In this document: positions 323-61,874 of the stretch, piece after piece
Layout of the letters: the number at the start of each line of letters is the position of its first letter
Numbering within the stretch: the first letter of the stretch is position 1
IMG/VR virus record: IMGVR_UViG_3300035208_001463
Coordinates: 1 to 64,000 of that record
Source: a virus
Lineage: Duplodnaviria; Caudoviricetes
Reading direction: 5' to 3' (one strand)
DNA length: 64,000 nt
The notes under the pieces: generated by a model
The model's database searches: none
Seen by the model: only the letters and a program-made list of their open reading frames with translations
What the model was told of the DNA's origin: nothing
Translations under genes and position numbers: made by a program

Positions 323-646
323 TTATCTGACATTTGGGATCTCCTTGTATTGTTCCGGGTGCAATCTGACATTGCACCGTATGTACGTATCTGCATCACA
401 GGATAGACAATCATCATCGCAAAAGAACGGACGATCTAATAGTTCCGATTCCTGCTGTGCTGTCACGGAACTATTGGAACGGATCAATCTGTTGATTTCA
501 CTTATCTGTTCTCTCTTCTTTTGCTCTCGGATTTGTGTAATTTCCACACCTTCGTATTTCCATTCCCCGCATGGAATATCAGAGGCGTACCCACATTTTT
601 TATCGTAACAATTATTACACGACGCGGGTGGTTGCTGTGCTGTCAT
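323..646 (-). CDS. small Cys-rich hypothetical protein
   Basis: 107 aa ORF with CxxC motifs at both ends, in a leftward run of small overlapping ORFs. Confidence 0.5.
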   Translation of the reverse strand: MTAQQPPASCNNCYDKKCGYASDIPCGEWKYEGVEITQIREQKKREQISEINRLIRSNSSVTAQQESELLDRPFFCDDDCLSCDADTYIRCNVRLHPEQYKEIPNVR

Positions 647-1289
647 GGTGCCAGCCCCATCAACGTGCAGGTTTCAATCTCCTGCTGCCAATTCTTTACC
701 TTACGGGCGTATTCACACGCTTGTTCCATCGTTTCGGCAATCACGTAGATGGAACGGGGCATTTCCCAAACCTTGTCAAACTCAATCCGGAAACAATATT
801 TTTTTACTTCCGTCATACCTCGCTCACTCCTCCTTCGCTCTCTTAAGAATCTCTTCTGGTTTTACTCCATAATCCAACTGCTGCGAACGTGCACACACGA
901 CACATCTATTATCAACAGGATGACAACCCTTCATTAGAAGCGAGTCATCAACATCCGATTCTACCCAACTACAGAATGTTTTGGTCATAGTTTATCCACC
1001 TCACCAATAACCCACTTCAACGCTTCCAATTTTATCTGTTCTGAATACGGGTCTCTTTCATCCATCCCTTCAATCCTACCTTCGAGACGAGCAATCATTA
1101 AGTTCACTTCCTCGTTTGTTTTCATACCAATCTATACGCATTAAAACATTATATACTTTTCTATGTTTATTTTTGCAGGTTTGATCTTCTTTCCAAAATA
1201 CGCATAGACCCCCAATACCTCCACAAGATTTCGCGTTTCTAATGATTTGTTAGTAATTGTGCGTATTACATATTTTTTGAAAGAAACGC

Positions 1290-1580
1290 GATTCTGGAGT
1301 AGAAACTATATGCGTGTGCAAATTTATAAAAAACGGGTATTTCCATTGGAATATAATATGCGTATAAATTTCCACAGGAAATAATATATAACAACCCATA
1401 TTTCCAGTAGAAATGTAACATAGAACGTATTATGAAAAAGTTAATTTAGAAATTTGAGTAAATTAGTAAATTTGGTATCTTTGCCGTTGCTTATAAACCC
1501 CCCCATTTCTTATCGTGTACCGTCAGTTTATATACTAATTAAAAAAATTACTAATTTACATAGATTACATAGATTGCTGA
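1290..1580. repeat. iteron-like repeats, candidate replication origin
   Basis: Three imperfect palindromes TTTCCAnnGGAA/TTTCCAGTAGAAA about 30 bp apart (near 1340, 1368, 1401), TAGATTACA tandem near 1556-1576, AT-rich non-coding DNA just downstream of the primase gene. Confidence 0.4.
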
Positions 1581-1691
1581 TATTCCTTAACTTACTCACT
1601 ATACGCGTGGGAATTGGTGTATAGAAAAGTATATATAGTAGTATTATTAAAAAAGACAATATTTTTTATAACGGTGAGTATATAAATAAAA

Positions 1692-4226
1692 TTATGGCAT
1701 CTTATAAAAAGTTGTCGGTTTTGATGAGTTGCCAACTTTCTTTTCTTCAGATACCACAAGACCGAGTTCCGATATAAAATCGTTGAGTTGTGTTCTCCCA
1801 TGTATTGAAACTATATCTCCTATTTCTGTGCGCGATAATTGTTTTCGTTCAGATAATGCTTTCATGAGTTTCGAGAATTTTCCTTTCCCATATGTAAGTT
1901 TTTGTGCTTTGATTGAAGTTTTATAAAATACATTTTCTGCCCAATCGCAAGCGATTGTTATATATTTTTCCGGAATTTCGAAATATATTTCTTGTAACAT
2001 CTTTGGCATGTTACCTTCGTATAATGATTCGTTTTCTAAAAATGTTTTAAATTCTGATGATGTTAATGTTAAATTCATAGCTGCTTTTCTTGCTTGATCG
2101 TAAACACGATTATATGTGGATCTTTCCATTTCCGAATAATCCGACCCGGCTGATTTTTCACGCAATGTTCGTTTCCAAGTATTCATGCGTTTACTTTCTG
2201 CAAATACAACCGTTCTTCCACCTATCAACTTTATTAAATTTTCAATCTCCGATATTATTTCTTCTTTGAGTCTCAAACATTGATCGCTAATTGCTTCATC
2301 CTCTTTAATTTCTTTTTTCCTAGTTGGCATTATAAAAAATGCACGGAGAAAGAAGCCACTTGTAAATTGTTCCTTATCTGCATAATCCCCAAATGCTTCC
2401 GGGACTGTATTCCACAACGCAGACAGGTGTGGAGTATTCGCTACAACCAACCCGTTTTTCATCGTCTCTTTCGACAATTTTGCTCCGTCGTATGCTTTAA
2501 TATAATCTTCTGCAAGATCTGTTGCATATTCCTTTTTCATAAATTTCATAAATCCGACTGCTTCGTCTACATAATGAATTCCCCGCGTGTGCTCTCCCTG
2601 TAAAGAAATTGCTAATATTTCTGGTGTTATCTTTGTAGCTATTCTTTTTACATGGGATGATATACGATCATCATATGTAATTGCCATTCCACCACTAGTT
2701 GCTGTTGATTTCCCACTGACACCAGATGGACCAAGAATAATCCCAAACATATTATTTGATACGCCGTTCTCTGCATATTGTGGTCGCATTTCAGCCCTTA
2801 TCAAATGACTGATAATGACAAGTATTGTACATAAATGATATTCTTCATATGCATCCTGTGTGAGTTTTCCAAATTCTACCCATTTGGAAATAAGATTTTC
2901 GCTTGGGGGAACATCTAAAAAGAATGGTTCGTCTTCAATAACTGGCATTAAAGCAGGTGTCTCTTCTATTGGTATTTGTTTCGTGGGATTTACCGAAGAT
3001 AATATTCCTGATATATCTACAGGTTCTTTTTGTGATTCGGTATATTGTGGATCATAATGAGAAGTGCTATCGCGTATTGCTTTATCTATAGTATAATTTC
3101 TAATATAATCAACACGGTTCCACTTATCACGAACGAGCCCGGATTTGCGCATTATTCTTTCAATTTGATTCGGATCGGTTGTATAAAATGCAAGGATGTT
3201 TGCCAATGCCATATCTGCTGCACTTCTGTCGTTGTTATTTCCAGATATGGAACCACCCATCAAACTTTTAAATTTATCGGAGTTGTATGATTTTGAAGCG
3301 ATATTTATAATTTCTTCGTCTGACAAAGATTTGGTGATTTGTTGTGAAATCACATGCGTTTCTTTCGTTGGTAATATTTTTTCAATCCCATGTGGATTTA
3401 AAATAGAATCCAACGCGAGTCGTATTACTGATACTGGGTATTCTTTTATATCATCTGTAGAATTTTTCCATTTGTTTCCGGTGAATGTGAAATATCTTTC
3501 TTTCGAATATATTTCAATATTATTTTTTCGCTTACCGAAATGTTCTTTTCCATTTGTATCTTTTGAATAATATGGGTGTTCGTTGCATTTTATAATTATA
3601 TGTAAACCTTTATCACTCGGTGTAATTTCTGTATATGATTTTAGAATTTGTGTGATCGTATTAAATTTTTCATCGGTAATATTATATTCCGAATCCAAAC
3701 ATTTATCGAGATCTATTCCAATAAGCATCTTATTTTCTCTGGAGACCCCATCGAATACAAATCCGATACCCTTCTCTTTTGAAGATTGTATTTCAGAAAC
3801 ATCTTCAAATCGTTTCCATGTGGTAGGATCGGTTGTGGATGCTTTTATTCCGGTCTGCGAATATGGAACTTTGGTTGGTTTACCATCTCGTGTTTCTAGT
3901 TTCCACCCTACCCAGTTGGTCAACGTTTTTAATTCATATGGGATATTTACATATTTATTACTGCGCGCATCAGCACGTGGACCCATTTCCTCTATTATTA
4001 TTATTCGTTTTCCAATTTCATTATCGGTTATTATTCTCAATTTTGTTTTTGTGTCTATATAGTTAGACCACGAAAATTCTTTTCCACAGTAAATGCATCT
4101 TCCATGTTCTGTAAACTTTGTTCCATCTTTTGTACCATCTTCACGCACAAAAATTTCGGTGCCCGTGTGTTCATATTTATGCCCGGGACAAGTTGTTTCT
4201 GTTGGTTTTTCATTCAATAATTGCAC
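1692..4226 (-). CDS. primase-polymerase (NrS-1-like prim-pol plus helix bundle) fused to DUF3987-like P-loop domain
   Basis: WVGWK..TKVPY, ASTTDPTTW, GIGFVF, GIDLD, YTEITPSDKGLH, IEIY..RYFTFTG; helix bundle DRSAADMAL..RDKW; Walker A GPSGVSGKST, Walker B YVDEA. Confidence 0.85.
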   Translation of the reverse strand: MQLLNEKPTETTCPGHKYEHTGTEIFVREDGTKDGTKFTEHGRCIYCGKEFSWSNYIDTKTKLRIITDNEIGKRIIIIEEMGPRADARSNKYVNIPYELKTLTNWVGWKLETRDGKPTKVPYSQTGIKASTTDPTTWKRFEDVSEIQSSKEKGIGFVFDGVSRENKMLIGIDLDKCLDSEYNITDEKFNTITQILKSYTEITPSDKGLHIIIKCNEHPYYSKDTNGKEHFGKRKNNIEIYSKERYFTFTGNKWKNSTDDIKEYPVSVIRLALDSILNPHGIEKILPTKETHVISQQITKSLSDEEIINIASKSYNSDKFKSLMGGSISGNNNDRSAADMALANILAFYTTDPNQIERIMRKSGLVRDKWNRVDYIRNYTIDKAIRDSTSHYDPQYTESQKEPVDISGILSSVNPTKQIPIEETPALMPVIEDEPFFLDVPPSENLISKWVEFGKLTQDAYEEYHLCTILVIISHLIRAEMRPQYAENGVSNNMFGIILGPSGVSGKSTATSGGMAITYDDRISSHVKRIATKITPEILAISLQGEHTRGIHYVDEAVGFMKFMKKEYATDLAEDYIKAYDGAKLSKETMKNGLVVANTPHLSALWNTVPEAFGDYADKEQFTSGFFLRAFFIMPTRKKEIKEDEAISDQCLRLKEEIISEIENLIKLIGGRTVVFAESKRMNTWKRTLREKSAGSDYSEMERSTYNRVYDQARKAAMNLTLTSSEFKTFLENESLYEGNMPKMLQEIYFEIPEKYITIACDWAENVFYKTSIKAQKLTYGKGKFSKLMKALSERKQLSRTEIGDIVSIHGRTQLNDFISELGLVVSEEKKVGNSSKPTTFYKMP

Positions 4227-12542: not shown

Positions 12543-12965
12543 ATGAAACGCCCAAATAATAACATCGAACAGTTGCAACAGGTACAGAAATTCCGTGACG
12601 ACGCCGTAAAAGACGGTTGGTCTATAAAACCAACATATGATCATCACGAGTCTGTGGAATCGGCATCCAGTTTATCCAAAGATGGATTTTCGATGTTGAT
12701 TTTAACACGAACGCACGATTTAAATAAATATCCAAATGTGAAGAATCTTTACGAAGTGGAAATTTCTATATGGGGGTCAGATGGACTTGCTATAGAACCT
12801 CCACAAGAATATGATATGCAAAAGATTATTGAAGGCATGCGGTTCTGCAAGCATTGTGGAAAAACCGATGTTGAAACCGTTCGATATTCATTTGCTGGAA
12901 GATGTTGTAAAGATTGTTTACCTGCATTAAGAGAGAAGCACGAACAACCGGGATGGTGTGATTGA
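12543..12965 (+). CDS. hypothetical protein with C-terminal Zn finger
   Basis: CKHC...CKDC. Confidence 0.6.
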   Translation: MKRPNNNIEQLQQVQKFRDDAVKDGWSIKPTYDHHESVESASSLSKDGFSMLILTRTHDLNKYPNVKNLYEVEISIWGSDGLAIEPPQEYDMQKIIEGMRFCKHCGKTDVETVRYSFAGRCCKDCLPALREKHEQPGWCD

Positions 12966-13910
12966 TGTCAATAACAACAGTTGAAAATTTAAAAATTAAC
13001 CATTTAATTGCGATTTTGGAAGCAATGGAAGGAACCAATATTCCATTTTTAACCGCAAAGAAAATGAGCGAAATATATTCGGAGTTGAAGGAATTTATTG
13101 AAAGGGAGGATGTGGTTGGTTAATATGTCAGATTGGGCGCGCAGGCAATTGTATATAAAGAACCCCGCAGTGGTCAACAAAAAGAAAGATGTGGTTATTG
13201 ATCCACAAACTGGCAAAGAAGAATGGGAAAACGAATACGATAAAGAAGAAATGTATGAGAATCCATTTTCATAGGAGTAAATTATGACAGAAGATGAATT
13301 TCGTTTTAAAGAAGATGTGAATATGAACGATCTTGCAAAGACTATTGGTGAGTCGCTTGCAACAACACTGGGTACAGACCCGAAAAAAGTAAAATGCAAA
13401 GGCATTCGTATATTTTATACTGATGAAAATGATATATTAATGTCATCAGGATTGTTTGTTAAAGGGTTTTCTCCGGAAGATTGGGATGATGAATAATGTC
13501 ATACCACTTCAAAATTACAATCGAAGGCGATTCCGAAGATAAAGAAAGTATAAACGGATTGTGTGAAAATTTAAAATCGGAAGTATGGCACGAGAATTCT
13601 ATCATACACGAACCAGAAATAACTTCCACAAAAACACACTGTTATCGTTGTGGTGAACATTGTGAATGGGATGGGCCTGCGAAAATATATCCCAAGATAT
13701 TAGACTTTCACGGGCACCCAGCGTGTCCTGTGGATTCGCCAATGCCAAAAGAGTTTAGGGAGGATGGGCCGTGACCGTTGATAGCGAAGATTGTGGTTAC
13801 AATCGTTGTGGATATTGTAGTAATACCGATTGTGATTATTATTTTGTAAAGTGTCCGTTTAAAACATTGGGTGAGTGTCCGGTGCATAATGAAAATATAG
13901 GTGACAACGA

Positions 13911-51438: not shown

Positions 51439-52060
51439 CCACAACCTTTTTATATAAACGCGTCTAATCATAATACATGAAAATCATAGGAACATTTTCT
51501 GTTACAAACGGGATGATCCGAGCACCACCCGGTACAGAAGGACGATTCACACTTGAATTGAATAGCAATGGATCTTTTATTTATCACCCACTAAAAAAAT
51601 GTGATACAGAATATCCTTTTGAAGTTTATGATGGTAATGAATTGCTTGCTTCATTTCCTACAGAAGCAAAAGCCATCGAATATAAACTTACAATGGAAAA
51701 ATCTTGTGGGCACACCTTACGCATGAAGAAAATGTTCCCTTCTGCTGGGAAGAATGGGAAGATTGTGGGGGATTAAAAACATGATTAATCCTGCCAACAT
51801 TGGTTATTTGAAGGGTATCATCATAAAAGAACTTTCCGCCGGTCGTCAATGTGAAATAACAGGTAGTATGCTAGTTCACATTAAGAATATTGAAGATTAC
51901 GAAAGCAAAAAAGAAAAATTCGTGGGAAAATTTGGAGAGGTCATTGCCAGAACACCAATTACAATAATTGCCACGCGATTTCCACCACCGTGGGCAGAAA
52001 AGAAAATTGACGAAGTGATATGGGATTGTGACGAGATGTTACGGTGGGATGCTGATATTA

Positions 52061-52486
52061 ATGACCGATGAAGAATGTCCATTAACAGCAAACCCGTGTA
52101 GGCATTGTTCTAGTGAACACGTATATCGTCCATATACGAAGGTAGAAAAAGATCCGAAAACCAATTTGTTCAGACCCGTAGGTATTGGGAAAATGGAAAT
52201 ATTTTTGGGTCACTACTGTAATAATGTTTGTTGTTGGTGCGATCAATTGGGAGGGTGTCCGATACCCGATGATCTGATACGACAGGGGAAGATGATTGAA
52301 GAAAACGAATTGGTGAAAGAGAAGGAGCGTGTGAAGGAAGAGAGGAGGAAAGCGAGAGAAAAAGCAAAGCGTGTGGCTGTTAAAAGTGCTGCGGGGAAAC
52401 CAATTAAACGACTCACAAAGGTAACAAAAGCAAAACCACAGAATAAGAAAGGTGTTACGAAGGGTGTGACAAAACGAAAACTTTAA
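52061..52486 (+). CDS. Cys-rich protein with Lys-rich tail
   Basis: CRHC, CNNVCCWC, basic C-terminus. Confidence 0.55.
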   Translation: MTDEECPLTANPCRHCSSEHVYRPYTKVEKDPKTNLFRPVGIGKMEIFLGHYCNNVCCWCDQLGGCPIPDDLIRQGKMIEENELVKEKERVKEERRKAREKAKRVAVKSAAGKPIKRLTKVTKAKPQNKKGVTKGVTKRKL

Positions 52487-53526
52487 ATAAAATAATTCTC
52501 TTTATATTTATACTTGTTGGTGCTTTTCTTCGTATTTTTAATGTGGGGTATCAATGTTTGTGGACGGAGGAAATTTACAGTCTCGAAATATCTTCTTTGT
52601 CAATCACAGACTTAATATTTAAATCTTTCGCTTCTGATTTCAATCCTCCCATTTACTATATCTTCGCGCACATATCACTTATTTTAACGAGTGGATTAGA
52701 TTTTTCGATTAGATACCCATCGGTAATAACAGGGATATTATTAATTCCTGTGATGTATTGGCTTGGTGCTACGTATAAAGATGAGGCGACGGGAATTTAT
52801 TGCGCGGGTCTTACAACCATACTACTTCCATTCATATATTACGCTCAATTCGGACGCGCGTATTCAATGTCTTTATTGTTCTTCGCGCTCGCGTTGGTTT
52901 ATTATATTAAAGTGAAAAACGAAAACACACGAACCGATAGAATTTTGTTTTGGGCGTTGGCAGTAATAAACGTGTGGATACATCTGTTTGCTGCAATACC
53001 CATTGGATTAATGTGTGTAGACCTATTACTTGACCGAAAACATTGGTTGTGTGGAATTGGTGCAGGAATATGTAGTTTGCCGCTTCTAGGTATGCTGGTG
53101 AATGTTTTAAGCACACGTACACACCAAGCGTTTAATTATGGTGCTTCAATTATTCAAATGGTTGTGCTGACACCAATGGAATTTTTCAACACTATATTCT
53201 TGAATATCTTTGTATTGGCGGGTGTAGGCGCGTGGTATGATAAAAATCCCATTAAAAAGAATTTAATAGTGATAACGGTAATTACGTTGATTGTGGGGGT
53301 TGTGGGATCTTGTTATACTCCGTTCTTCCCACGATACTATATGACGGTATCGTTGATTATTCTGTTGATGTGTTCGGCGGGTATTGTAGAATTGACGAAA
53401 ACATGTTCCAAAAAAATAGGTAAAAATTTAGATTATATTATTCTGATAATACTATTTGTGGTATTTATCTGGATGGAATTTCCTAATTTGGTGAGTCATT
53501 ATACTATAATGCAGTATGAGTGTTAA
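52474..53526 (+). CDS. GT-C (PMT/ArnT-like) membrane glycosyltransferase
   Basis: LRIFNVGYQCLWTEE, DFNPPIYY, IRYPS, YYAQFGRAYS, PRY; multiple TMs; frame extends upstream of track start 52543 to an ACG codon. Confidence 0.8.
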   Translation, partial: TKTLNKIILFIFILVGAFLRIFNVGYQCLWTEEIYSLEISSLSITDLIFKSFASDFNPPIYYIFAHISLILTSGLDFSIRYPSVITGILLIPVMYWLGATYKDEATGIYCAGLTTILLPFIYYAQFGRAYSMSLLFFALALVYYIKVKNENTRTDRILFWALAVINVWIHLFAAIPIGLMCVDLLLDRKHWLCGIGAGICSLPLLGMLVNVLSTRTHQAFNYGASIIQMVVLTPMEFFNTIFLNIFVLAGVGAWYDKNPIKKNLIVITVITLIVGVVGSCYTPFFPRYYMTVSLIILLMCSAGIVELTKTCSKKIGKNLDYIILIILFVVFIWMEFPNLVSHYTIMQYEC

Positions 53527-54014
53527 AAAAGAATTAAATCTTATGATCCTTCACGTATTCCAGAAACGCCAAATATGCAAATTTCTTTCCTTCTTCTCTT
53601 GATTTGAATCCTTGAATATCATGGAAAGAAAATGCACTCATTAATTTGTCTGATGTTATCATAGGGCTTTTTACTTTATGCGACCAGAAAAATTCAAAAG
53701 CATCTTTAGTATTGGTGAAATTCTTTGAAGTAAGAGCACCATTTGCTTTGTTGTAAATGACTTTGTAGATCACTTTTTTCCCACCTCATAATAAAATTAA
53801 ATTTTGTCTCTTAATGCTTCATAAGCATTTTTATATTCAATACCATTTACAAATTTCCATTGATCTCCTTTTGAAACATATTTAGTAAGTCTCCAATGAT
53901 CACCTATTGAAACGGCACGGAGTTTTTCTCCTTTCTTCCCAATCGCATAAACATTATTTTTAGTAGAAGATATGATTTTTCCAGATTTAATAGATTTTGA
54001 TTTTTTGGTTGCTC

Positions 54015-54194
54015 TCATTTCCCCAACCCCCCAATAACAGATCCAGCTAAAGCTACCCCCATTCCAGCAATAGCGACATTTCCAACCATTTGAGTGGTTG
54101 CTTCCATCGTCCTTTCCATACTTTTAATTCCCTCGAATTCGGGGGATTTGCGCTTCTGCGGCTTACGTTTTGTTGTTTTTGTTTTGCGTGGCAT
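54015..54194 (-). CDS. basic protein with C-terminal Gly-rich membrane helix (59 aa, not in track)
   Basis: MPRKTKTTKRKPQKRKS...VAIAGMGVALAGSVIGGLGK. Confidence 0.65.
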   Translation of the reverse strand: MPRKTKTTKRKPQKRKSPEFEGIKSMERTMEATTQMVGNVAIAGMGVALAGSVIGGLGK

Positions 54195-54589
54195 GATTAC
54201 TCGTCCGTTTTATTTCTATGATAATTTGAATAGTTTATATCAGTGCGGTGTTTACTCGATTTTCCTTTAACCTTTCTAATTTTTCGCGTGTTTGCTACCG
54301 ATTCGTTAACATCTAATCTATATCTTCCCCGCGATTCTTTCTTTAATTTAACTGTACCTATTCTTTTATGTGATTGTACCATGTTATTTCACACCTTCTT
54401 CGTATGCGCCCAAACTGTGTAAATGTATCTATCTACATCTTTGTCTTTAGTTACATGCACAATTTCGGTGCCATATTTACGAACTCTCTTTGCTTCAGCA
54501 TCAGCATCTTTTTTAGTGTTGTGATATCCAACAACATAAAATTTCTTGTGATTAAAGATTCTCGATTGCATTTTTCACTTCCTCCCTTT

Positions 54590-54790
54590 CTAAATCCCCA
54601 ACTTCTTCTCCATCTTTTTCAATTCTACATAATACTGTGAACTTTCCAAAAGATGATCTTTCGCAATTGCTTTTGCCACACGTTTGCTTTTGGTATGTTC
54701 CATCTCTACCTTTATACCATATTTTAATTGTGTGGCATCAAAAAAAGAATCTGGATATTTTGAACCTTTGCCACCAATTTTTGTAGTCAT
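54590..54790 (-). CDS. DUF5661-like protein
   Basis: GIKVEMEHT....AKAIAKDHL.E...YY.EL. Confidence 0.7.
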   Translation of the reverse strand: MTTKIGGKGSKYPDSFFDATQLKYGIKVEMEHTKSKRVAKAIAKDHLLESSQYYVELKKMEKKLGI

Positions 54791-57700
54791 TCCCTCTTAC
54801 CTCCAATCTTATTCCTTGCTAATGTTTCCCAAATGCTAAATGGCTTCATATACGTTTTTTCTTCTGTCGCTATTTTTACTTCCGGTTCTCCTTTTAGATG
54901 AAGACGGAGAAATTCGGACATGGTTATTTACCACTCAAACGTATCAAATCTTTTTCCACCGATGCTCTTCTTAAATGCGTGTTTACCCTTGTGCCGCCTT
55001 CCGAAATATAGATCATCTACAGCAAGTTTGGTTGGTTCATAACCACCCATCATAGAACTATGACGGTGGACTTTGGATTTTGTGCGTGTTCCGTATTTTC
55101 TTGTAGAAGTCATTTTAATCTACCTCAATTTCCCATTATAAAATTCATGCGCGGTCTTTTCAATAAGATGAAGTCTCCAATTCTTCCCAACCTTTTTGAC
55201 TTCGTAGCGTTTAATCATACTACCAATCTTTTGCACATAAGTCAGACCTACCGCGCGCTGCCCGGCTTTCTGTGCCTCAATTTTAGTTGGGTATTCACCT
55301 TCAACGTATCGTTTTCTTGACATTTCACAACCTCTAGATATACTTTCTACGTTATAGAAAATATTGCTATGTCTAATAGGTTAAATGTCAAAGTATAAAT
55401 AGTTATCTATTGTTGGAAAAAAGAGAAAATATTTGATTATATTATTATACAATAGGCTTCATCTGTTTAATTGCATATGGGACATCGCGCTTCAATCTAA
55501 TATATGAACTCAAATTAACATTGTGATAATTGGCAAATTTTTCTCTTGCTTGTTTCCCATTAATTGCAACAACGGGTCTGAAATCTTCTGTTCCACTCCA
55601 CCCGATATAAAAAATCTTTGGTTCTCCGGTTTTTGATTTAACAGCAACCATGATTTTTTTCCTATTTATTAGCGCGATCCGCATTCAACAACGCATTCGC
55701 GCGCTTCTTCATAAGTGCCGTTACACGAACCATCTTATTTCCCGTGGTTGTCGGGTTGTGTGCCACCATTCCAATCTTGGTATCCACAATTGCTTGGAGA
55801 AAAGTTAAAGGAATCTTTTCACTTGACGGTACACCGAGCTGCTTGTGAAATACACCTTTACCGGCCCGCTTAAAAGCGTCTTGCATCCATAGATTTGTTT
55901 TGCGCATTTTTGTTTCACCTTTAATCAATATTACTCTCTATTCCCACCACGACCAATAATATGAATCTTCCCCAATGGGTTTCGATTCATCATGGTGTTT
56001 TCCCCATCCGGCTGCAAAGCAACCTTATCCGACCCACCACCAGCCTCCTTCGCGCGGTTCATAAGGCCAAAGATGTCAACTTTCATCTTAATCCCTGTTC
56101 CCGCCCTTACCGGTAACGTTTCGGAATCTTCCAAGAAGCCCGTTGGAAAGCATACTCTCTCCCTGCGCTCCGGGTACGCTGTCTTGGCGTTCCTTCGTGT
56201 ATCCAGCAGTGCGATCCATGATTCCTTTTAAGTCAGGTGTCTTCATAAAGTCTTAATCTTCCCGAGGATTTTGGTTGTTTCCTCTTTTGTCTTACCCCAC
56301 GCATTATTGGCATCAAGCGGTTGCCCGTGATGCTTATTGTGGAGTATTGTTTGATCAGTTGTATGTTCCATATACTTAAACCTTTTGGTTAGTTTTTCGT
56401 TTGCTTCTTCGGCTACGTTGAATAGGTGTTTCATAATAATCTACCTCTTGTGTATATAAACAACATACCATGTTTGTGTATCCACAACACGAGCAAGATA
56501 TCCTTCTTTTCTTAATCGTTTTGCTTCCAAATTTGCTCTTTCTTTTGTTGAGAATGGATGATAAACATGATATGTTTTATCTCCAAATTTTCGTGTTCTT
56601 TCACTCATTTCCTCACCATCTTCTTCGTCTCTTTTTCCACACGCTCTACAACACCAGAAACAATCTTCTTCATTGATTCCAAACTAGACATTTTCTTGTG
56701 TGCTTCACAATGCGACTTTGACACTTCTTTGTTAAGTGTGTTGTATTTCAATACATCTTTGGGGTTGACTTTTTCAAGACCCCCTACTGTAGGTTCTTTC
56801 ATATTACTTCTCCCTCACATGTGTAGGCACATTATCTGCGCGAACGGGATTGATATTGCCCGTCGACGGGTGGAACTTGAACCACGCTCGTGCGCCACCC
56901 GGATGTGTTACAACAATATAGTTGTCTCCGGTCTCGCTGTCATACCGCGTTCCATACTTATCACCACGGAAGAATTTCATTGTTGAGTGGTCAAAGAAAT
57001 GACCACTTGATCGATTCTTCATTTCTTGTAGTGTATATCTACGTGTTTTGTTGGTCATGATAAATTACTTCCCCTTCTTCATTTCTCTCACTACATCTTC
57101 AATTTCCCCCTGCATTCCAGAAAGAAGTTCAACGGCAATTGCTTTTTTGGTAGAAGTGGGGATAACACCAATTTTCTTTTCATAATATTCTTCCGCTGCT
57201 CTTTTATATTTTTTAATGCCGGTTTCGGCGAGATATGTGACTAGTTTGATTGCCTTCTCGCGTTCATATATTCCTTTCACTTTCTTCTTCGCGAGATTCA
57301 CAACAATCGGTCTGTATTGCTGACGATAAAGTGTGCCATCAGATTCTACAGAGTCAACAATATATTGTGCAAATCCTCCGATACGTGTTCCAGATTTCAT
57401 TTCAAACCCTCGCACCCTTCGCAACAAACACTCCATAACGGAGTCGCCCTGCTTCCTTACCGAGATCCACAACAATAGCGAGTGTCATATAATCCTTATG
57501 CATTCGTCCTGCTTGTGTTCCCAAGTCGCGCGCAGATGCCTTTGCAGTCTGCACGTTTTCATATGCATCATAAATCGAATAAACATGACCACGGAATGAA
57601 TATCGCGTGATGTCTGGTGATTTCGCTCTGTGAATCATAGTTATTTCCTCCCCAAAATTTCAATCTCGTATACTCTAAATGGGGCGTCTGTATACATATA

Positions 57701-58963
57701 GTTTACGGAAAGTTTGTGTCCCTTTGCAGAAGGGTGATTCTTACGAAATGTTGCTTCTGCATTCTTTTTGTTGTGTGCTGCTTGGAGAGTCATATTATTT
57801 CCTTCCTCCGGACTTCCCTTTAATTGATGTAGGTGATTTCCATGTGCTATACTGATATCCGGTAATATATCCTCCGATGTATAGAGTGTGGATATAATTT
57901 TTCCATGCTTCTCGCATTTCAAATTTATTGCTTTCTCCGTAATGTTTAATAGTGGATGGTAAAATGTTTTTTATAAAATATTTTTCTGCTTCTCGTTTTA
58001 ATAATTTAGTTACCATAATTATTTCCTCCGTTTAGGAACTTTCACAAGTGATTTTTCCGCCCATGTTAAATACTGTCCTTGTGGTCCATGTACCTTATAA
58101 TGCCAACCAATATGTCCTTCAAATCTGTAATCAAGGTATCCAATTTTCCCCACATAATATGTGGAATCTTTAACTTTAACAATATCGCCAATTTTGTATT
58201 TTGGTTTTCTTACATTGCGTCCGTTGTAATACATTTTACTTACTCCCCCAATAAATAAACACCGCGTATGGTTTTGATTCAATATAACTTTTTCTGATTA
58301 TAAGTTTACTATTTGAATTACCTTTGTGTATCATTGCAGATTTACCCTTAATTTCAGCATATCGTTTTGAAGAATATGAGTTGTAATAAACATAAAGTTT
58401 TCCATTTATTTTCCTAGTTGGTTCAAATACCATTTTAAACCACCACAATCCTCCCCCCTCTTGAAGAGGTAGGAACCAATGTAATCTTGTTGTTCCCCAG
58501 ATCCTTTCTGATTTCTACTTGTCCCTCTGACATCGGAATTGGATCATCCGGATCTCCAAGAATCTTAACTTTGTAAGGAACAGGACGTCCATTAACGCGC
58601 CGTCCCTTTGGAACGGTCATTACGAGATTGCCTTTTGCGCGGGAATAGTGGCCTATTTCGATGGACATGGTTACTTCCTCCTGACGTAAACATGATACCA
58701 ATTTCTCATTTCTTTTTCAATTCGCACGTAGTGCGTGGGTTCATAATATTTTTTCCAATAATTTGCCCGAGCCATTGTGTGTACAGAATGTGCGTGTCTA
58801 AATCTCATACCATTAAAAACTTCTGTTTTTTCTGATTCGCCACGGTGATTTTCAACCATTTTTCTCTCCTATCCCATATAGTGAGTTTTCACGATAAATT
58901 AATTTTGTTGTTATGAGATATGAAAATAGTTTGTGGTTATAGTATATAAATGTTTGCTTAAAA

Positions 58964-60148
58964 TTATTTTTTGTATTTCTTAATAATATTTGCATGTTTA
59001 ACTTTGTAAATCTCATATTCTTCTTTTGTCAAATAACACTTTTTACCTTCTTTCGTTCGTTGTTCAACACGATCTTCTAAAAATTTAATCCACCAAATTT
59101 TATCCCTTCCAGATTTTTTATTCCCCCTCACAATTCCGTGTTCTTCATGTGTTAATAAAACAAATTTATTGGGATCTTCTTTGATATAATATTTAATCCA
59201 ATCCGGGTTTTTATTTGAACCGTTATTAATCCAAGCGTAATATCCTCCAGCGTCCTCATCCCAAATGCAACATGCTTTCTCTTGCCAGTATAAGTGATGT
59301 CTATCTAATGCATATCCCCTATGGTTTTCAAATCTCGTTTTACCAGATAATATGCTTTTAAAATCATAAGCTGCATCTATACGATTCTTTAAATCTTTAT
59401 TCCATTTTTCACAATAATATAATCTCGTTGGGCCGCGTAAAATATGGTGACCATACCAAAATAGTTCTCCGGTTAATTGTTCTATCCAAGATACATTTTC
59501 ACTTCGGAGTATCATGCTTTCTTTATTTTTAGGATCATTCATCCTTTTTATCATACCACTTTTAAAATTTTTTATATACTCTTCGTTTTCTTTATGGAGA
59601 AGTAACACAGTATTTCGTATTTTTTCTACATTTTCCTTGTTTTTACAAGCGCAATCAAAACATCTATAATTCTCCTCGGGTTTATCAAAATTGCATTTAT
59701 AGTCGGTTCTTTCCTTCCCACAGTCTATACATTTATAAGTTACGGTTCCAACACGTATGTGTTTTCTAGAACATTTGTAGCACCTGTATTCAGATATTTT
59801 GTAGTGTTTGGCATCACTCGGTCTTACTTTTCTTTCTCTACCACAATCAGAACATTTTAATACTATTCGTTCGGATCTTCTATTTTTCTGTGCACATGTA
59901 TAACATCTATACTCTTCACGTGGCTTTTTAAAATCGGATGGGTATAAAGTTCTCTCTTTTCCACAATCTATGCACGCATAAGTTACTTTATTATTTTTCC
60001 TTCTATCCGGATTTATTTCCCACCAATGTTTACCAGCACATGAATGGCATCTATAGTCTTCTATCCATACACCGTCTTTATAAAAACGAGATTTTTGTGC
60101 TGTCTTCTCTTTTCCACAATCAACACAATATCTAGTGATTATTACCAT
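58964..60148 (-). CDS. Zn-ribbon repeat protein with C-terminal HNH-like domain
   Basis: Four CxDCG(K/R)E(R/K)...YRCxxC units; YCEKWN...LDRHH...FVLLTHEEH. Confidence 0.75.
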   Translation of the reverse strand: MVIITRYCVDCGKEKTAQKSRFYKDGVWIEDYRCHSCAGKHWWEINPDRRKNNKVTYACIDCGKERTLYPSDFKKPREEYRCYTCAQKNRRSERIVLKCSDCGRERKVRPSDAKHYKISEYRCYKCSRKHIRVGTVTYKCIDCGKERTDYKCNFDKPEENYRCFDCACKNKENVEKIRNTVLLLHKENEEYIKNFKSGMIKRMNDPKNKESMILRSENVSWIEQLTGELFWYGHHILRGPTRLYYCEKWNKDLKNRIDAAYDFKSILSGKTRFENHRGYALDRHHLYWQEKACCIWDEDAGGYYAWINNGSNKNPDWIKYYIKEDPNKFVLLTHEEHGIVRGNKKSGRDKIWWIKFLEDRVEQRTKEGKKCYLTKEEYEIYKVKHANIIKKYKK

Positions 60149-60259
60149 TATTTAATTATATGTTTTTATAGTATATAAATTGTTCTGATCATAAAATACT
60201 ATAATAAATTTCAAAAGTTTCATCGAAAAAAGATATTTTATTTTTATTTTATTAGGAGT

Positions 60260-60341
60260 GGTGAAAAACATCCTCTTATGAGAGAGGGAAGCATAAACCG
60301 CTTGCCACGCGTGGCAGTCTCACCGTCACGGATTTTGACGG
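60260..60341. ncRNA. candidate structured RNA/DNA element (multi-hairpin)
   Basis: GC-rich intergenic island: GGTGA/TCACC enclosing CCTCT/AGAGG, AAGC/GCTT, TGCCAC/GTGGCA, followed by CCGTCA/TGACGG. Confidence 0.4.
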
Positions 60342-60697: not shown

Positions 60698-61366
60698 TCA
60701 CCTCACCCCCACTTTCGCACGAAACCCATCAAAGATTTCACTCATCCGAATATCATACAAGAAATCTTCGAATGGTTTTGGATCTACTTCATCCGGAAGC
60801 ATAGACTTTTCTTTTGCAAGATCAAGATATCTAAACCATTTTCCGATATTCTCATTTGTTATTTCATCTTCGGGTGGTTTGAATTCGATTTTGTGATTCA
60901 TAAGCATTGTAACCCCGAATTGAAGTGTTCGCATAGTGGTTGCTTTGCTTTTTAACGGGTCTTTTACACTTGCACGTTTTATTGCATCATTGAGTTGTGA
61001 ATGTGCCATTCCATTAATAGATGCATAGGATGACTTTGAAAGATTGTCGGTTACAATATCACGAAGTTTTGAAAGCCATTCGCTATCTTTATGAATGATT
61101 GGCGAGCATACGCTCCATATTGCATTTACATTGCCTTTTTTAAGCAGGTTGACAAGATGACCAATCTCCATATATTGTGCATCGATTTCTTTTGTATTCT
61201 CGAAGTAGGATTTTGCTGCACGGGTCTTTTCGAATGTGCTACCGCGCAGGTATTCGGAAGATGGCTGTTGAAATACATGGAACAGATCATAATCTGAACT
61301 GGGAGTGGCCATTCCCCACATACGGGAGCCTACTTCGGTGATGAAGAGATAGTTATCAGTCATCAT
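60698..61366 (-). CDS. Pol-beta superfamily nucleotidyltransferase (YcgL/RlaP-like)
   Basis: GSRMWGMATPSSDYD, KGNVN. Confidence 0.82.
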   Translation of the reverse strand: MMTDNYLFITEVGSRMWGMATPSSDYDLFHVFQQPSSEYLRGSTFEKTRAAKSYFENTKEIDAQYMEIGHLVNLLKKGNVNAIWSVCSPIIHKDSEWLSKLRDIVTDNLSKSSYASINGMAHSQLNDAIKRASVKDPLKSKATTMRTLQFGVTMLMNHKIEFKPPEDEITNENIGKWFRYLDLAKEKSMLPDEVDPKPFEDFLYDIRMSEIFDGFRAKVGVR

Positions 61367-61874
61367 ACCATCTCGAAGGTCTCCCATTCACCCAATCGTG
61401 TTTATAAGCCTCATCCCTCGTCACTTCAATTGTAACGCGGTCATCGTCTCTCCAATACCTGTCATTGTAGTAATAATATCGTGTATTGCTCCAATGGTGC
61501 GAGATGATGTTTATGTAGTCCACTTTATAAACAATCGCATTATATGGCGTGTATGTCGATACAACATGAAACTGTACACGATCTCCAATATTTAATTCAT
61601 CGTAGTATGAATAAGGAACATCAAAGATCCTAGTATCCTCTCTTATATTGACCTGCGCGAAACCCGCTGCACACGTCATGCTCGATATTGTAACCACATT
61701 CGTGAGATATGTAGGATCAGGCGTTGGTGTAGGCACAGGAGTAGGTGCAACCGTTACTACTGTGGGAGCGTTTACGTGTCCGTAGTTGTATCCTGCGTAG
61801 GCAATTGATGCTGATAAAAGCAGGATTGCGATGACAAAGATCGGGGTTGTGATGTCTTTTGTGTCGATGGTCAT
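61356..61874 (-). CDS. membrane-anchored protein with Pro/Thr linker
   Basis: N-terminal TM, PTPVPTPTP. Confidence 0.6.
   Translation of the reverse strand: MTIDTKDITTPIFVIAILLLSASIAYAGYNYGHVNAPTVVTVAPTPVPTPTPDPTYLTNVVTISSMTCAAGFAQVNIREDTRIFDVPYSYYDELNIGDRVQFHVVSTYTPYNAIVYKVDYINIISHHWSNTRYYYYNDRYWRDDDRVTIEVTRDEAYKHDWVNGRPSRWYDD

Follow-up and report, generated by a model that had tools for sequence, protein, structure and literature searches.

A run of 25 tiny genes, packed head to tail on one strand and all encoding basic proteins, raises the question of what so many small proteins of one chemical character do for a virus, and whether they have more in common than their charge. This array occupies positions 53534-58859 of the first 64,000 nucleotides (hereafter the window) of IMG/VR record IMGVR_UViG_3300035208_001463, a single virus genome of 112,520 bp which is classed as 'linear' in IMG/VR and has a CheckV completeness of 82%. 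A sequence-only reading of the window had described about 25 tiny basic proteins at these positions and had guessed at a diversified set of nucleic-acid-binding proteins that coat the genome or are delivered with the virion, that is, a viral chromatin or an anti-defence cassette. We find that the region is an accessory cassette, conserved yet plastic, which is carried by large uncultivated archaeal viruses of one lineage. As to function, the reading that we prefer, while granting it somewhat less than an even chance, is that the proteins bind a polyanion, most likely DNA or RNA, and coat, compact or shield nucleic acid, some of them being packaged.

The charge of the array proteins was compared with that of the other products in a uniform open reading frame (ORF) call of the whole 112.5-kb genome. 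All 25 array proteins, of 44-111 amino acids, have an isoelectric point (pI) of 9.2-11.2 and a net charge of +2 to +12, whereas the 110 other small ORFs of the genome that bear a ribosome-binding site have a median pI of 6.0 and exceed pI 9 in 25% of cases (Mann-Whitney p 1e-9). Thus, pI along the genome, which the sequence-only reading had named as a check, does set the array apart from other small ORFs. The description of the proteins as almost free of cysteine and unlike the accessory ORFs elsewhere was also borne out, since they hold a single cysteine in 1697 residues, whereas the other small ORFs contain 3.2% cysteine and the genome outside the array 2.3% (binomial 5e-16). With regard to overall composition, lysine, arginine, histidine and glycine are raised and aspartate, leucine, isoleucine and proline lowered; because cysteine is down 25-fold while tryptophan stands at 0.7x and tyrosine at 1.2x, the loss of cysteine is specific and base composition does not explain it. 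Large proteins encoded at 85051-103657 of the record (L002) are likewise almost devoid of cysteine, with none in 1526 and in 451 amino acids, two in 1282 and one in 539; these proteins are probably virion-exposed, and the 1526-residue one, which matches no family, is basic as well (pI 9.5). Replication-type and zinc-ribbon proteins of the genome contain 2-6% cysteine. The two cysteine-poor blocks are alike in a further respect, namely that the hexamer ACGCGT, enriched in the window (25 sites versus 6 expected), is missing both from 51464-60306, which covers the array and its neighbours and agrees with the earlier remark that the array promoters lack it, and from 87611-107156, where the large cysteine-free proteins lie. 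That one charge and one avoidance of cysteine extend across unrelated sequences suggests a shared destination or class of ligand, of which nucleic acid would be the simplest, and not common descent.

To choose ORF starts, we relied on ribosome-binding sites and on how closely a start adjoins the stop codon of the gene before it; the ORF listing then yielded 25 consecutive minus-strand ORFs separated by gaps of 0-25 nt, the sole exception being a gap of 121 nt (55324-55444). They are given below in the direction of transcription together with two putative promoter elements; dN/dS is the ratio of non-synonymous to synonymous substitution rates, L012 is a related 139-kb contig, and the mini-domain is a small domain that recurs in the array, the last two being taken up further on.

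58943-58950, minus strand: TATA box TTTATATA of the upstream operon, of archaeal TATA consensus, putative promoter
58671-58859, minus strand: o25, 62 amino acids, pI 9.9; mini-domain member, AGGAG Shine-Dalgarno site upstream
58435-58668, minus strand: o24, 77 amino acids, pI 10.2; core gene, present in 4/4 compared arrays
58236-58433, minus strand: o23, 65 amino acids, pI 10.0; divergent mini-domain member
58019-58234, minus strand: o22, 71 amino acids, pI 10.0
57795-58016, minus strand: o21, 73 amino acids, pI 9.9; family common to large bacteriophages
57641-57793, minus strand: o20, 50 amino acids, pI 9.9; core gene, start refined to the ATG behind GGAGGAAGG
57402-57638, minus strand: o19, 78 amino acids, pI 9.9; remote mini-domain member, core gene
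57065-57400, minus strand: o18, 111 amino acids, pI 9.7; largest protein, start refined to the ATG right behind the o19 stop codon
56804-57058, minus strand: o17, 84 amino acids, pI 10.0; core gene
56605-56802, minus strand: o16, 65 amino acids, pI 9.7; carries the only cysteine of the array, dN/dS 0.15 versus L012
56441-56608, minus strand: o15, 55 amino acids, pI 10.1; best mini-domain member
56243-56434, minus strand: o14, 63 amino acids, pI 9.4; core gene, 4/4 arrays, dN/dS 0.10
56088-56246, minus strand: o13, 52 amino acids; tandem paralogue of o12
55931-56086, minus strand: o12, 51 amino acids; tandem paralogue of o13
55662-55907, minus strand: o11, 81 amino acids, pI 11.2; core gene, 4/4 arrays
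55445-55651, minus strand: o10, 68 amino acids, pI 10.0; last gene of the upstream operon
55393-55400, minus strand: TATA-like box ATTTATAC within the 121-nt gap, behind an oligo-T run; putative promoter of the downstream operon
55120-55323, minus strand: o09, 67 amino acids, pI 10.2
54928-55113, minus strand: o08, 61 amino acids, pI 10.5
54787-54921, minus strand: o07, 44 amino acids, pI 9.2; L012 orthologue 79% identical, dN/dS 0.06
54590-54790, minus strand: o06, 66 amino acids, pI 9.6; DUF5661 (PF18905), 51.9 bits (cut-off 27), E 1e-13
54389-54571, minus strand: o05, 60 amino acids, pI 9.8; mini-domain member
54197-54382, minus strand: o04, 61 amino acids, pI 10.7; 34% lysine, arginine and histidine
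54015-54194, minus strand: o03, 59 amino acids, pI 10.8; orthologues in 4/4 arrays
53797-54018, minus strand: o02, 73 amino acids, pI 10.2
53534-53773, minus strand: o01, 79 amino acids, pI 9.5; ends the downstream operon, orthologues with dN/dS 0.08

The TTTATATA box lies about 85 nt ahead of the o25 start codon, within the 104-nt gap behind a gene for a 394-amino-acid protein, and no ACGCGT was found near it. One oligo-T run (55417-55429) stands behind o10 and a second one behind the last gene, o01. Because of the TATA boxes ahead of o25 and inside the 121-nt gap, and of the two oligo-T runs, the array would be read as two polycistronic operons of 16 and 9 genes, the promoters and terminators being assigned by their consensus.

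ORFs so short, 20 of which have no family match, might be taken for frames that arose by chance in purine-rich DNA, either non-coding or degenerate. The strong ribosome-binding sites that the sequence-only reading had pointed out are indeed there, in that a GGAGG/GAGGT-type site precedes 80% of the array ORFs versus 59% of those elsewhere, and the genes are packed without overlap problems. These sites are of the ordinary Shine-Dalgarno kind, and the genes have no long leader sequence in common. Moreover, profile searches and exact-protein look-ups revealed the same kind of array on five related virus contigs, namely a 110-kb NCBI contig (L005), 18-kb contigs (L006/L007), the 139-kb IMG/VR contig L012, a 21-kb contig (L016) and a fragment (L017). 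The arrays comprise 26 genes in L005, 42 in L007, 39 in L012 and at least 41 in L016, and their products exceed pI 9 in 26/26, 40/42, 35/39 and 40/41 cases, respectively, so that with the window included 166 of 173 proteins are above pI 9 and cysteine makes up 47 of 12,068 residues (0.4%). Between the window and L005, L007 or L012, orthologue pairs show dN/dS of 0.04-0.2. Among the single genes, o24 orthologues are 82-95% identical (dN/dS 0.08-0.16), those of o17 89% (0.05-0.10) and those of o11 78-96% (about 0.1), o22 has an 83% identical orthologue in L012 (0.08), and o20 is 100% identical at the amino-acid level to its L005 and L007 orthologues at a synonymous divergence (dS) of 0.23-0.32. 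Such values exclude chance ORFs and demonstrate strong constraint on the array proteins. With collinear orthologues on four or more other contigs, and with high-confidence fold predictions for two members, an annotation artefact is refuted, and we regard its probability as negligible. Thus, the array genes are real proteins under purifying selection, and the diversified set of small basic proteins that had been proposed is distinct, real and kept in relatives.

This conserved set is, at the same time, in flux. A collinear backbone, which includes o25, o24, o22, o20, o19, o17, o16, o14, o13, o12, o11 and o10 among others, is broken up by lineage-specific genes. At the position of o20, L012 carries a gene (12800-12985) that begins with the first nine o20 codons (MTLQAAHNK) and continues as an unrelated gene; this unrelated part is present also in L007 (3919-4104), and the junction is an AACAAA microhomology. 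It is the replacement of a single gene. The neighbours o12 and o13 are tandem paralogues (blastp 4e-4; dN/dS 0.04-0.07) that belong to a cluster with seven members across the arrays. Both end in G[KR]GGNR[DE], and a GNRD C-terminus is found also in a third gene, at 18951-19100 of L012; this shared ending may be a short linear interaction motif. The array grows and shrinks through tandem duplication and single-gene swaps. In a more distant, GC-rich relative (L013), whose RlaP nucleotidyltransferase is 55% identical, no array was found, whereas an apparently unrelated 7.4-kb Logan contig (L011; GC content 44%) holds 21 small genes on one strand, with 20 of 21 proteins above pI 9 (median 10.9) and three mini-domain genes, one of them a tandem two-domain fusion.

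A locus with these habits calls to mind the hyperplastic or host-takeover regions known from phages, such as the early regions of T4-type phages and the host-takeover module of SPO1. The array could accordingly be a host-takeover or counter-defence cassette in which each protein binds, redirects or inhibits a different host or defence target, and in which basic charge reflects acidic host targets or the RNA of defence systems, not bulk coating of nucleic acid. The likeness is considerable: there are tens of small co-oriented ORFs, many of them unrelated, set in operons between conserved modules, the arrays on the collinear backbone hold anything from 25 to more than 41 genes, with gain, loss and replacement among relatives, including the swap at a microhomology junction, and mini-domain orthologues have diverged to 40-60% identity. 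Some of the families are common to accessory ORFs of T4-like cyanophages and jumbo phages, as in the case of o21, which matches two PHROGs without assigned function (phrog_10097, E 3e-5; phrog_336, E 3e-4) and by tblastn gave weak matches in T4-like cyanophages and a jumbo Xanthomonas phage. Even the RlaP, RNA ligase and peptidyl-tRNA hydrolase (PTH2) genes that occur near the arrays could be read as counter-defence. Known anti-restriction proteins and many anti-CRISPR proteins, however, are acidic DNA mimics, whereas 96% of the array proteins are basic. In addition, the core members are strongly conserved (dN/dS 0.04-0.15, with o20 invariant), unlike what an arms race would produce, and PADLOC gave no meaningful match. 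The array differs from the phage regions also in that its proteins are all basic and cysteine-free, that one mini-domain accounts for a third of the genes, that its collinear core is highly conserved, and that the virus has no detectable tailed-virus hallmark genes. We hold host takeover to be less probable than not, but a strong rival of the reading that we prefer, and a stronger one than the glycan-binding and RNA-directed readings discussed below.

Searches of all 25 proteins against Pfam, PHROGs, NCBIfam and PADLOC returned only DUF5661 in o06, SPOR in o15, and sub-threshold DUF7447 and phrog matches, and PDB sequence searches with o24, o22, o11 and o18 gave nothing significant. No family match was found for o24 or o11, and for o18, which has no relative in the other arrays, no significant one; o04 has no relatives that we could find. 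The product of o17 weakly matches DUF7447 (E 4e-4, below the cut-off) and phrog_4655 (E 2e-3). On the strength of weak matches to an SH3 domain (1uff, E 0.046) and to the MS_channel beta-domain (E 0.015), o22 is possibly an SH3-like barrel. As judged from its translation, o03 is very basic in its N-terminal half, and its C-terminal segment, hydrophobic and rich in glycine and alanine, is a possible membrane anchor.

What does recur within the array is one small domain. Blastp within the window links o05, o15 and o25 (o05-o15, 4e-6; o25-o15, 2e-6), and a profile of the three recovered 87 clusters at E <1e-3 from 1.8 billion representative proteins. All of these are small, and nearly all are free-standing proteins of 52-67 amino acids, a few being tandem two-domain fusions (P0063, P0077). 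A hidden Markov model (HMM) of the family, built on an alignment of 74 sequences (A3), has the FNGK-type consensus TRKFNGKxY ... TKxxAxxxAKxLRKxGYLARV ... YxVYxRKK; in the alignment F8, A25 and R40 are nearly invariant, and R6, G10, K11, Y13, K22, K30, R33, G36, Y48, V50, Y/W51 and R53 (arginine or lysine at 53) are conserved, K22, K30 and R33 being on the helix. In this genome the HMM matched o15 (3e-26), o05 (2e-18), o25 (9e-18) and o23 (3e-6; hhalign probability 88%, E 3e-6) and nothing beyond the array. For o19 the HMM match was not significant (E 0.76); however, comparison of its own family (A4, 24 sequences; o19 has 23 homologue clusters and a dN/dS of 0.06-0.15) with A3 by hhalign gave a probability of 90% and an E of 2e-6. 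Five paralogues of the mini-domain are thus present in this array: o05, o15, o19, o23 and o25. The sequence-only reading had grouped the genes at 54389, 57402, 58236 and 58671 and probably 55120. The first, third and fourth of these are upheld by the HMM and the second by profile comparison and predicted fold, while 55120 (o09) is not supported, with an HMM E of 2.3 and an hhalign probability of 3.7%, and the best member, at 56441 (o15), had been overlooked. Across the lineage the family HMM picks out roughly a third of what the arrays encode: 41 of 132 proteins in four arrays and about 18 of 41 in L016.

Structure prediction, which along with HMM comparison had been set as a check on whether a fold is shared, was applied to two members, and the models do share one. 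The AlphaFold2 model of o15 (predicted local distance difference test, pLDDT, 91.4) places strands at residues 5-8 and 11-19, a helix at 22-34 and strands at 37-43 and 48-54, and that of o19 (pLDDT 94.5) strands at 12-15 and 18-26, a helix at 29-39 and strands at 50-58 and 68-77. The predicted mini-domain is therefore a four-stranded sheet packed on one helix in the order beta-beta-alpha-beta-beta; the beta-alpha-beta-beta pattern that had been read from the sequence is present in it, preceded by an additional short N-terminal strand. Along the last two strands R40, Y/W51 and R53 alternate with the core residues A39, V41, Y48 and V50, and so they should face the open side of the sheet. An aromatic-plus-arginine sheet face, as positioned here from the models, would be typical of nucleic-acid or glycan binders.

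The second of these ligands deserves attention, as the glycan groove of SPOR domains is itself an aromatic-plus-arginine sheet face, which that of the mini-domain resembles, both folds being alpha/beta sandwiches. If the mini-domain were a true SPOR relative, the proteins could bind wall or surface glycans of the host, for instance in entry or lysis. With Pfam SPOR (PF05036), whose cut-off is 21 bits, o15 scores 23.1 bits, though 20.8-21.6 bits in the genome scan, and SPOR domains of CwlC (1x60) and RlpA (6i0n) rank among the best-matching natural folds (Z 4.5-4.8). The match, however, spans only positions 12-48 of the 76 of the profile, none of the other 24 array proteins matches SPOR, and only 5 of the 74 family members do so. 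With its single helix, the o15 model stops behind the strand aligned to SPOR position 48; at about 55 residues it lacks the second helix and last strand, and with them the second alpha-beta half, of the complete SPOR fold (about 70 residues, beta-alpha-beta-beta-alpha-beta). SPOR is a C-terminal module of wall proteins, whereas the mini-domain is free-standing and multiplied in an archaeal virus; by eye, no signal peptide, N-terminal hydrophobic segment or membrane segment is visible in the translations of its members. Murein would not be expected in the host of a virus that, like this one, looks archaeal. Glycan binding would also leave the equal basicity of 20 unrelated neighbours unexplained, and we consider it very unlikely.

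Wider searches gave no other name for the domain. Fold searches with the o15 and o19 models (PDB by Foldseek, BFVD) returned only generic small alpha/beta matches of Z <=6: the closest were designed EHEE mini-proteins at Z about 6 and the SPOR domains just mentioned, the remainder including a LAGLIDADG half-domain and ring-building motifs, and all of them fall in the tool's own non-discriminating range. The family profile found nothing significant among PDB sequences (best S16, E 1.3), an ESM Atlas look-up of o15 scored below 0.85, a level that gives no more than leads, and in 50,697 phage records tblastn found no match to o15 or o17. Since the SPOR match is partial and confined to 5 of 74 members and the fold matches do not discriminate, we do not count the family as a member of SPOR but as an unnamed mini-domain whose kinship with SPOR, if any, is distant and that of a truncated form.

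On every contig where the upstream side is available, namely L005, L006/L007, L012 and L016, the array begins directly downstream of a homologue of RlaP. The corresponding genes of the window are the following:

60698-61387, minus strand: RlaP-family nucleotidyltransferase (Pfam PF10127, E 2e-17), upstream landmark of the array, kept in relatives
58964-60148: gene for a 394-amino-acid zinc-ribbon protein with a weak DUF7836 match, between RlaP and the array in this genome

An RNA ligase is encoded as well just upstream in L016 (region 478-3108), and a peptidyl-tRNA hydrolase (PTH2) further upstream in L005 (1018-1362). RlaP, RNA ligase and peptidyl-tRNA hydrolase may mark an RNA-repair or translation-maintenance module tied to the array. 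The 394-residue protein carries many repeated CxxC pairs (5.6% cysteine) and has a homologue of 46% identity in the 139-kb relative, where it lies tens of kb from RlaP and adjoins putative structural genes, which means that the region has been rearranged; in that relative there is no array beside the homologue, and the array sits elsewhere, behind RlaP.

Such surroundings suggest that the mini-proteins might be directed at RNA, binding tRNA, rRNA or mRNA and keeping up or redirecting translation together with the adjacent RNA-repair genes. Besides the constant position behind RlaP and the RNA ligase and peptidyl-tRNA hydrolase genes, this would fit with a resemblance to ribosomal-protein operons, which are long and tightly packed and encode small, basic, cysteine-free proteins, and with the predicted alpha/beta sandwich, whose aromatic and arginine residues would lie on the sheet face as in ribonucleoprotein (RNP)-type folds. 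Yet no significant likeness to ribosomal or RNA-binding families was seen, S16 at E 1.3 being the best PDB sequence, adjacency alone is weak evidence, and in this genome the zinc-ribbon gene stands between RlaP and the array. A role confined to RNA and translation seems improbable to us.

Binding of nucleic acid more generally remains the reading that we prefer. According to it, the common selective constraint on the array would be the binding of a polyanion, most likely DNA or RNA, through the exposed sheet face of the mini-domain, with its nearly invariant arginine, invariant tyrosine or tryptophan and basic residue, and through basic helices and tails. The proteins would be produced in quantity in the infected cell, where they would coat, compact or shield nucleic acid, and at least some of them would be carried with the genome inside the virion; packaging of this kind would account for the avoidance of cysteine that is common to the array and the putative virion proteins. 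The indirect points in favour of a link to virion or nucleic acid are the basic character of all array proteins, the depletion of cysteine as in the 85-104 kb proteins, and the lack of ACGCGT in both blocks. A further one is provided by DUF5661 of o06, which occurs also in the middle of a 422-amino-acid DUF2213 protein of the cultured Vibrio phage vB_VpaM_VPs20 (L023, OP056089.1 27628-28896). The gene for this protein belongs to the head module, with the terminase gene on one side and the DUF2184 capsid gene on the other, and the embedding of DUF5661 there hints at a capsid-interior module.

Several observations weigh against nucleic-acid coating. No array protein matches a known nucleic-acid-binding family in Pfam, PHROGs, NCBIfam or PDB sequences, and the fold matches are weak and generic (Z 4-6). 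Stoichiometric coating needs one or a few abundant proteins, whereas each genome encodes 25-50 different ones with single-gene turnover, and some array families are common to accessory regions of T4-like phages. A basic, cysteine-free make-up is typical of binders of acidic proteins too. Finally, the neighbours of the array are replication- or repair-type genes, and it lies 25 kb away from the putative structural block.

A stronger form of nucleic-acid coating holds that the 25-50 basic proteins assemble on the viral genome as a viral chromatin and are co-packaged with it, a SPOR-derived mini-domain having been repurposed from glycan to nucleic-acid binding. Known small basic DNA-condensing proteins are archaeal Sso7d, Cren7, Alba and MC1, adenovirus VII and mu, and baculovirus P6.9; the array proteins are like them in being small, of high pI and cysteine-free, with beta-rich folds and aromatic and basic surfaces. 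They differ in that no sequence relationship or convincing fold relationship was detected and none of those proteins is among the top fold matches, and in that one or a few abundant proteins are used there and 25-50 different ones here. We hold this chromatin model to be unlikely. MC1, in which the order of strands and helix is similar to that of the mini-domain, was rejected as a candidate: a six-frame search of the 112.5-kb record with MC1 (PF05854) gave no match at E up to 10, while Methanosarcina and Haloferax controls matched, and MC1 is absent from the top 50 fold rows.

Besides the array, the genome encodes a family B DNA polymerase, matched best, at about 32% identity, by those of haloarchaeal tailed viruses. 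Methylases, an NrS-1-type primase-polymerase, TnpB copies, a split ribonucleotide reductase (RNR) and an AP2-HNH protein are encoded too, and the second half of the genome holds large PKD, DUF3821 and CarboxypepD_reg proteins. Among the large proteins tested against Pfam and PHROGs, no terminase, portal or HK97-type capsid was detected, which leaves room for a protein-coated genome. The host assignment of the virus lineage is made less certain by two labels attached to the 139-kb relative. This contig (L012; L014/G001 contig C3, JBBABY010000003.1) was deposited within a 1.1-Mb metagenome-assembled genome titled 'archaeon', and one of its proteins is labelled 'Candidatus Paceibacterota' by one source. 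The GTDB relatives of this 'archaeon' all have genomes of 0.3-1.4 Mb.

The sequence-only reading knew of no named system of this kind, and we came to the same result: none was found in Pfam, PHROGs, NCBIfam or PADLOC, and neither the array nor the mini-domain is described in library models, solved structures or the papers found. Full-text searches of the literature yielded no paper on DUF5661 or on SPOR in archaeal viruses, and a paper on methanogen viruses is silent about arrays of this type. Large phages are already known to carry arrays of small accessory genes, and we see a modest chance that a genuinely new viral nucleoprotein system is present here.

The FNGK-type domain is in any case a well-defined, unnamed and widespread family (87 clusters at 50% identity) with a predicted fold of high confidence. 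Its 55 residues make it one of the smallest natural alpha/beta domains, with a close resemblance to de novo designed EHEE mini-proteins. The uniform charge and avoidance of cysteine across unrelated folds form a clean signature of a common cellular destination. If the proteins do bind nucleic acid, this lineage would organise or protect its genome or RNAs by a route new for prokaryotic viruses, in which a large, evolvable battery of mini-proteins would take the place of one coat or histone-like protein.

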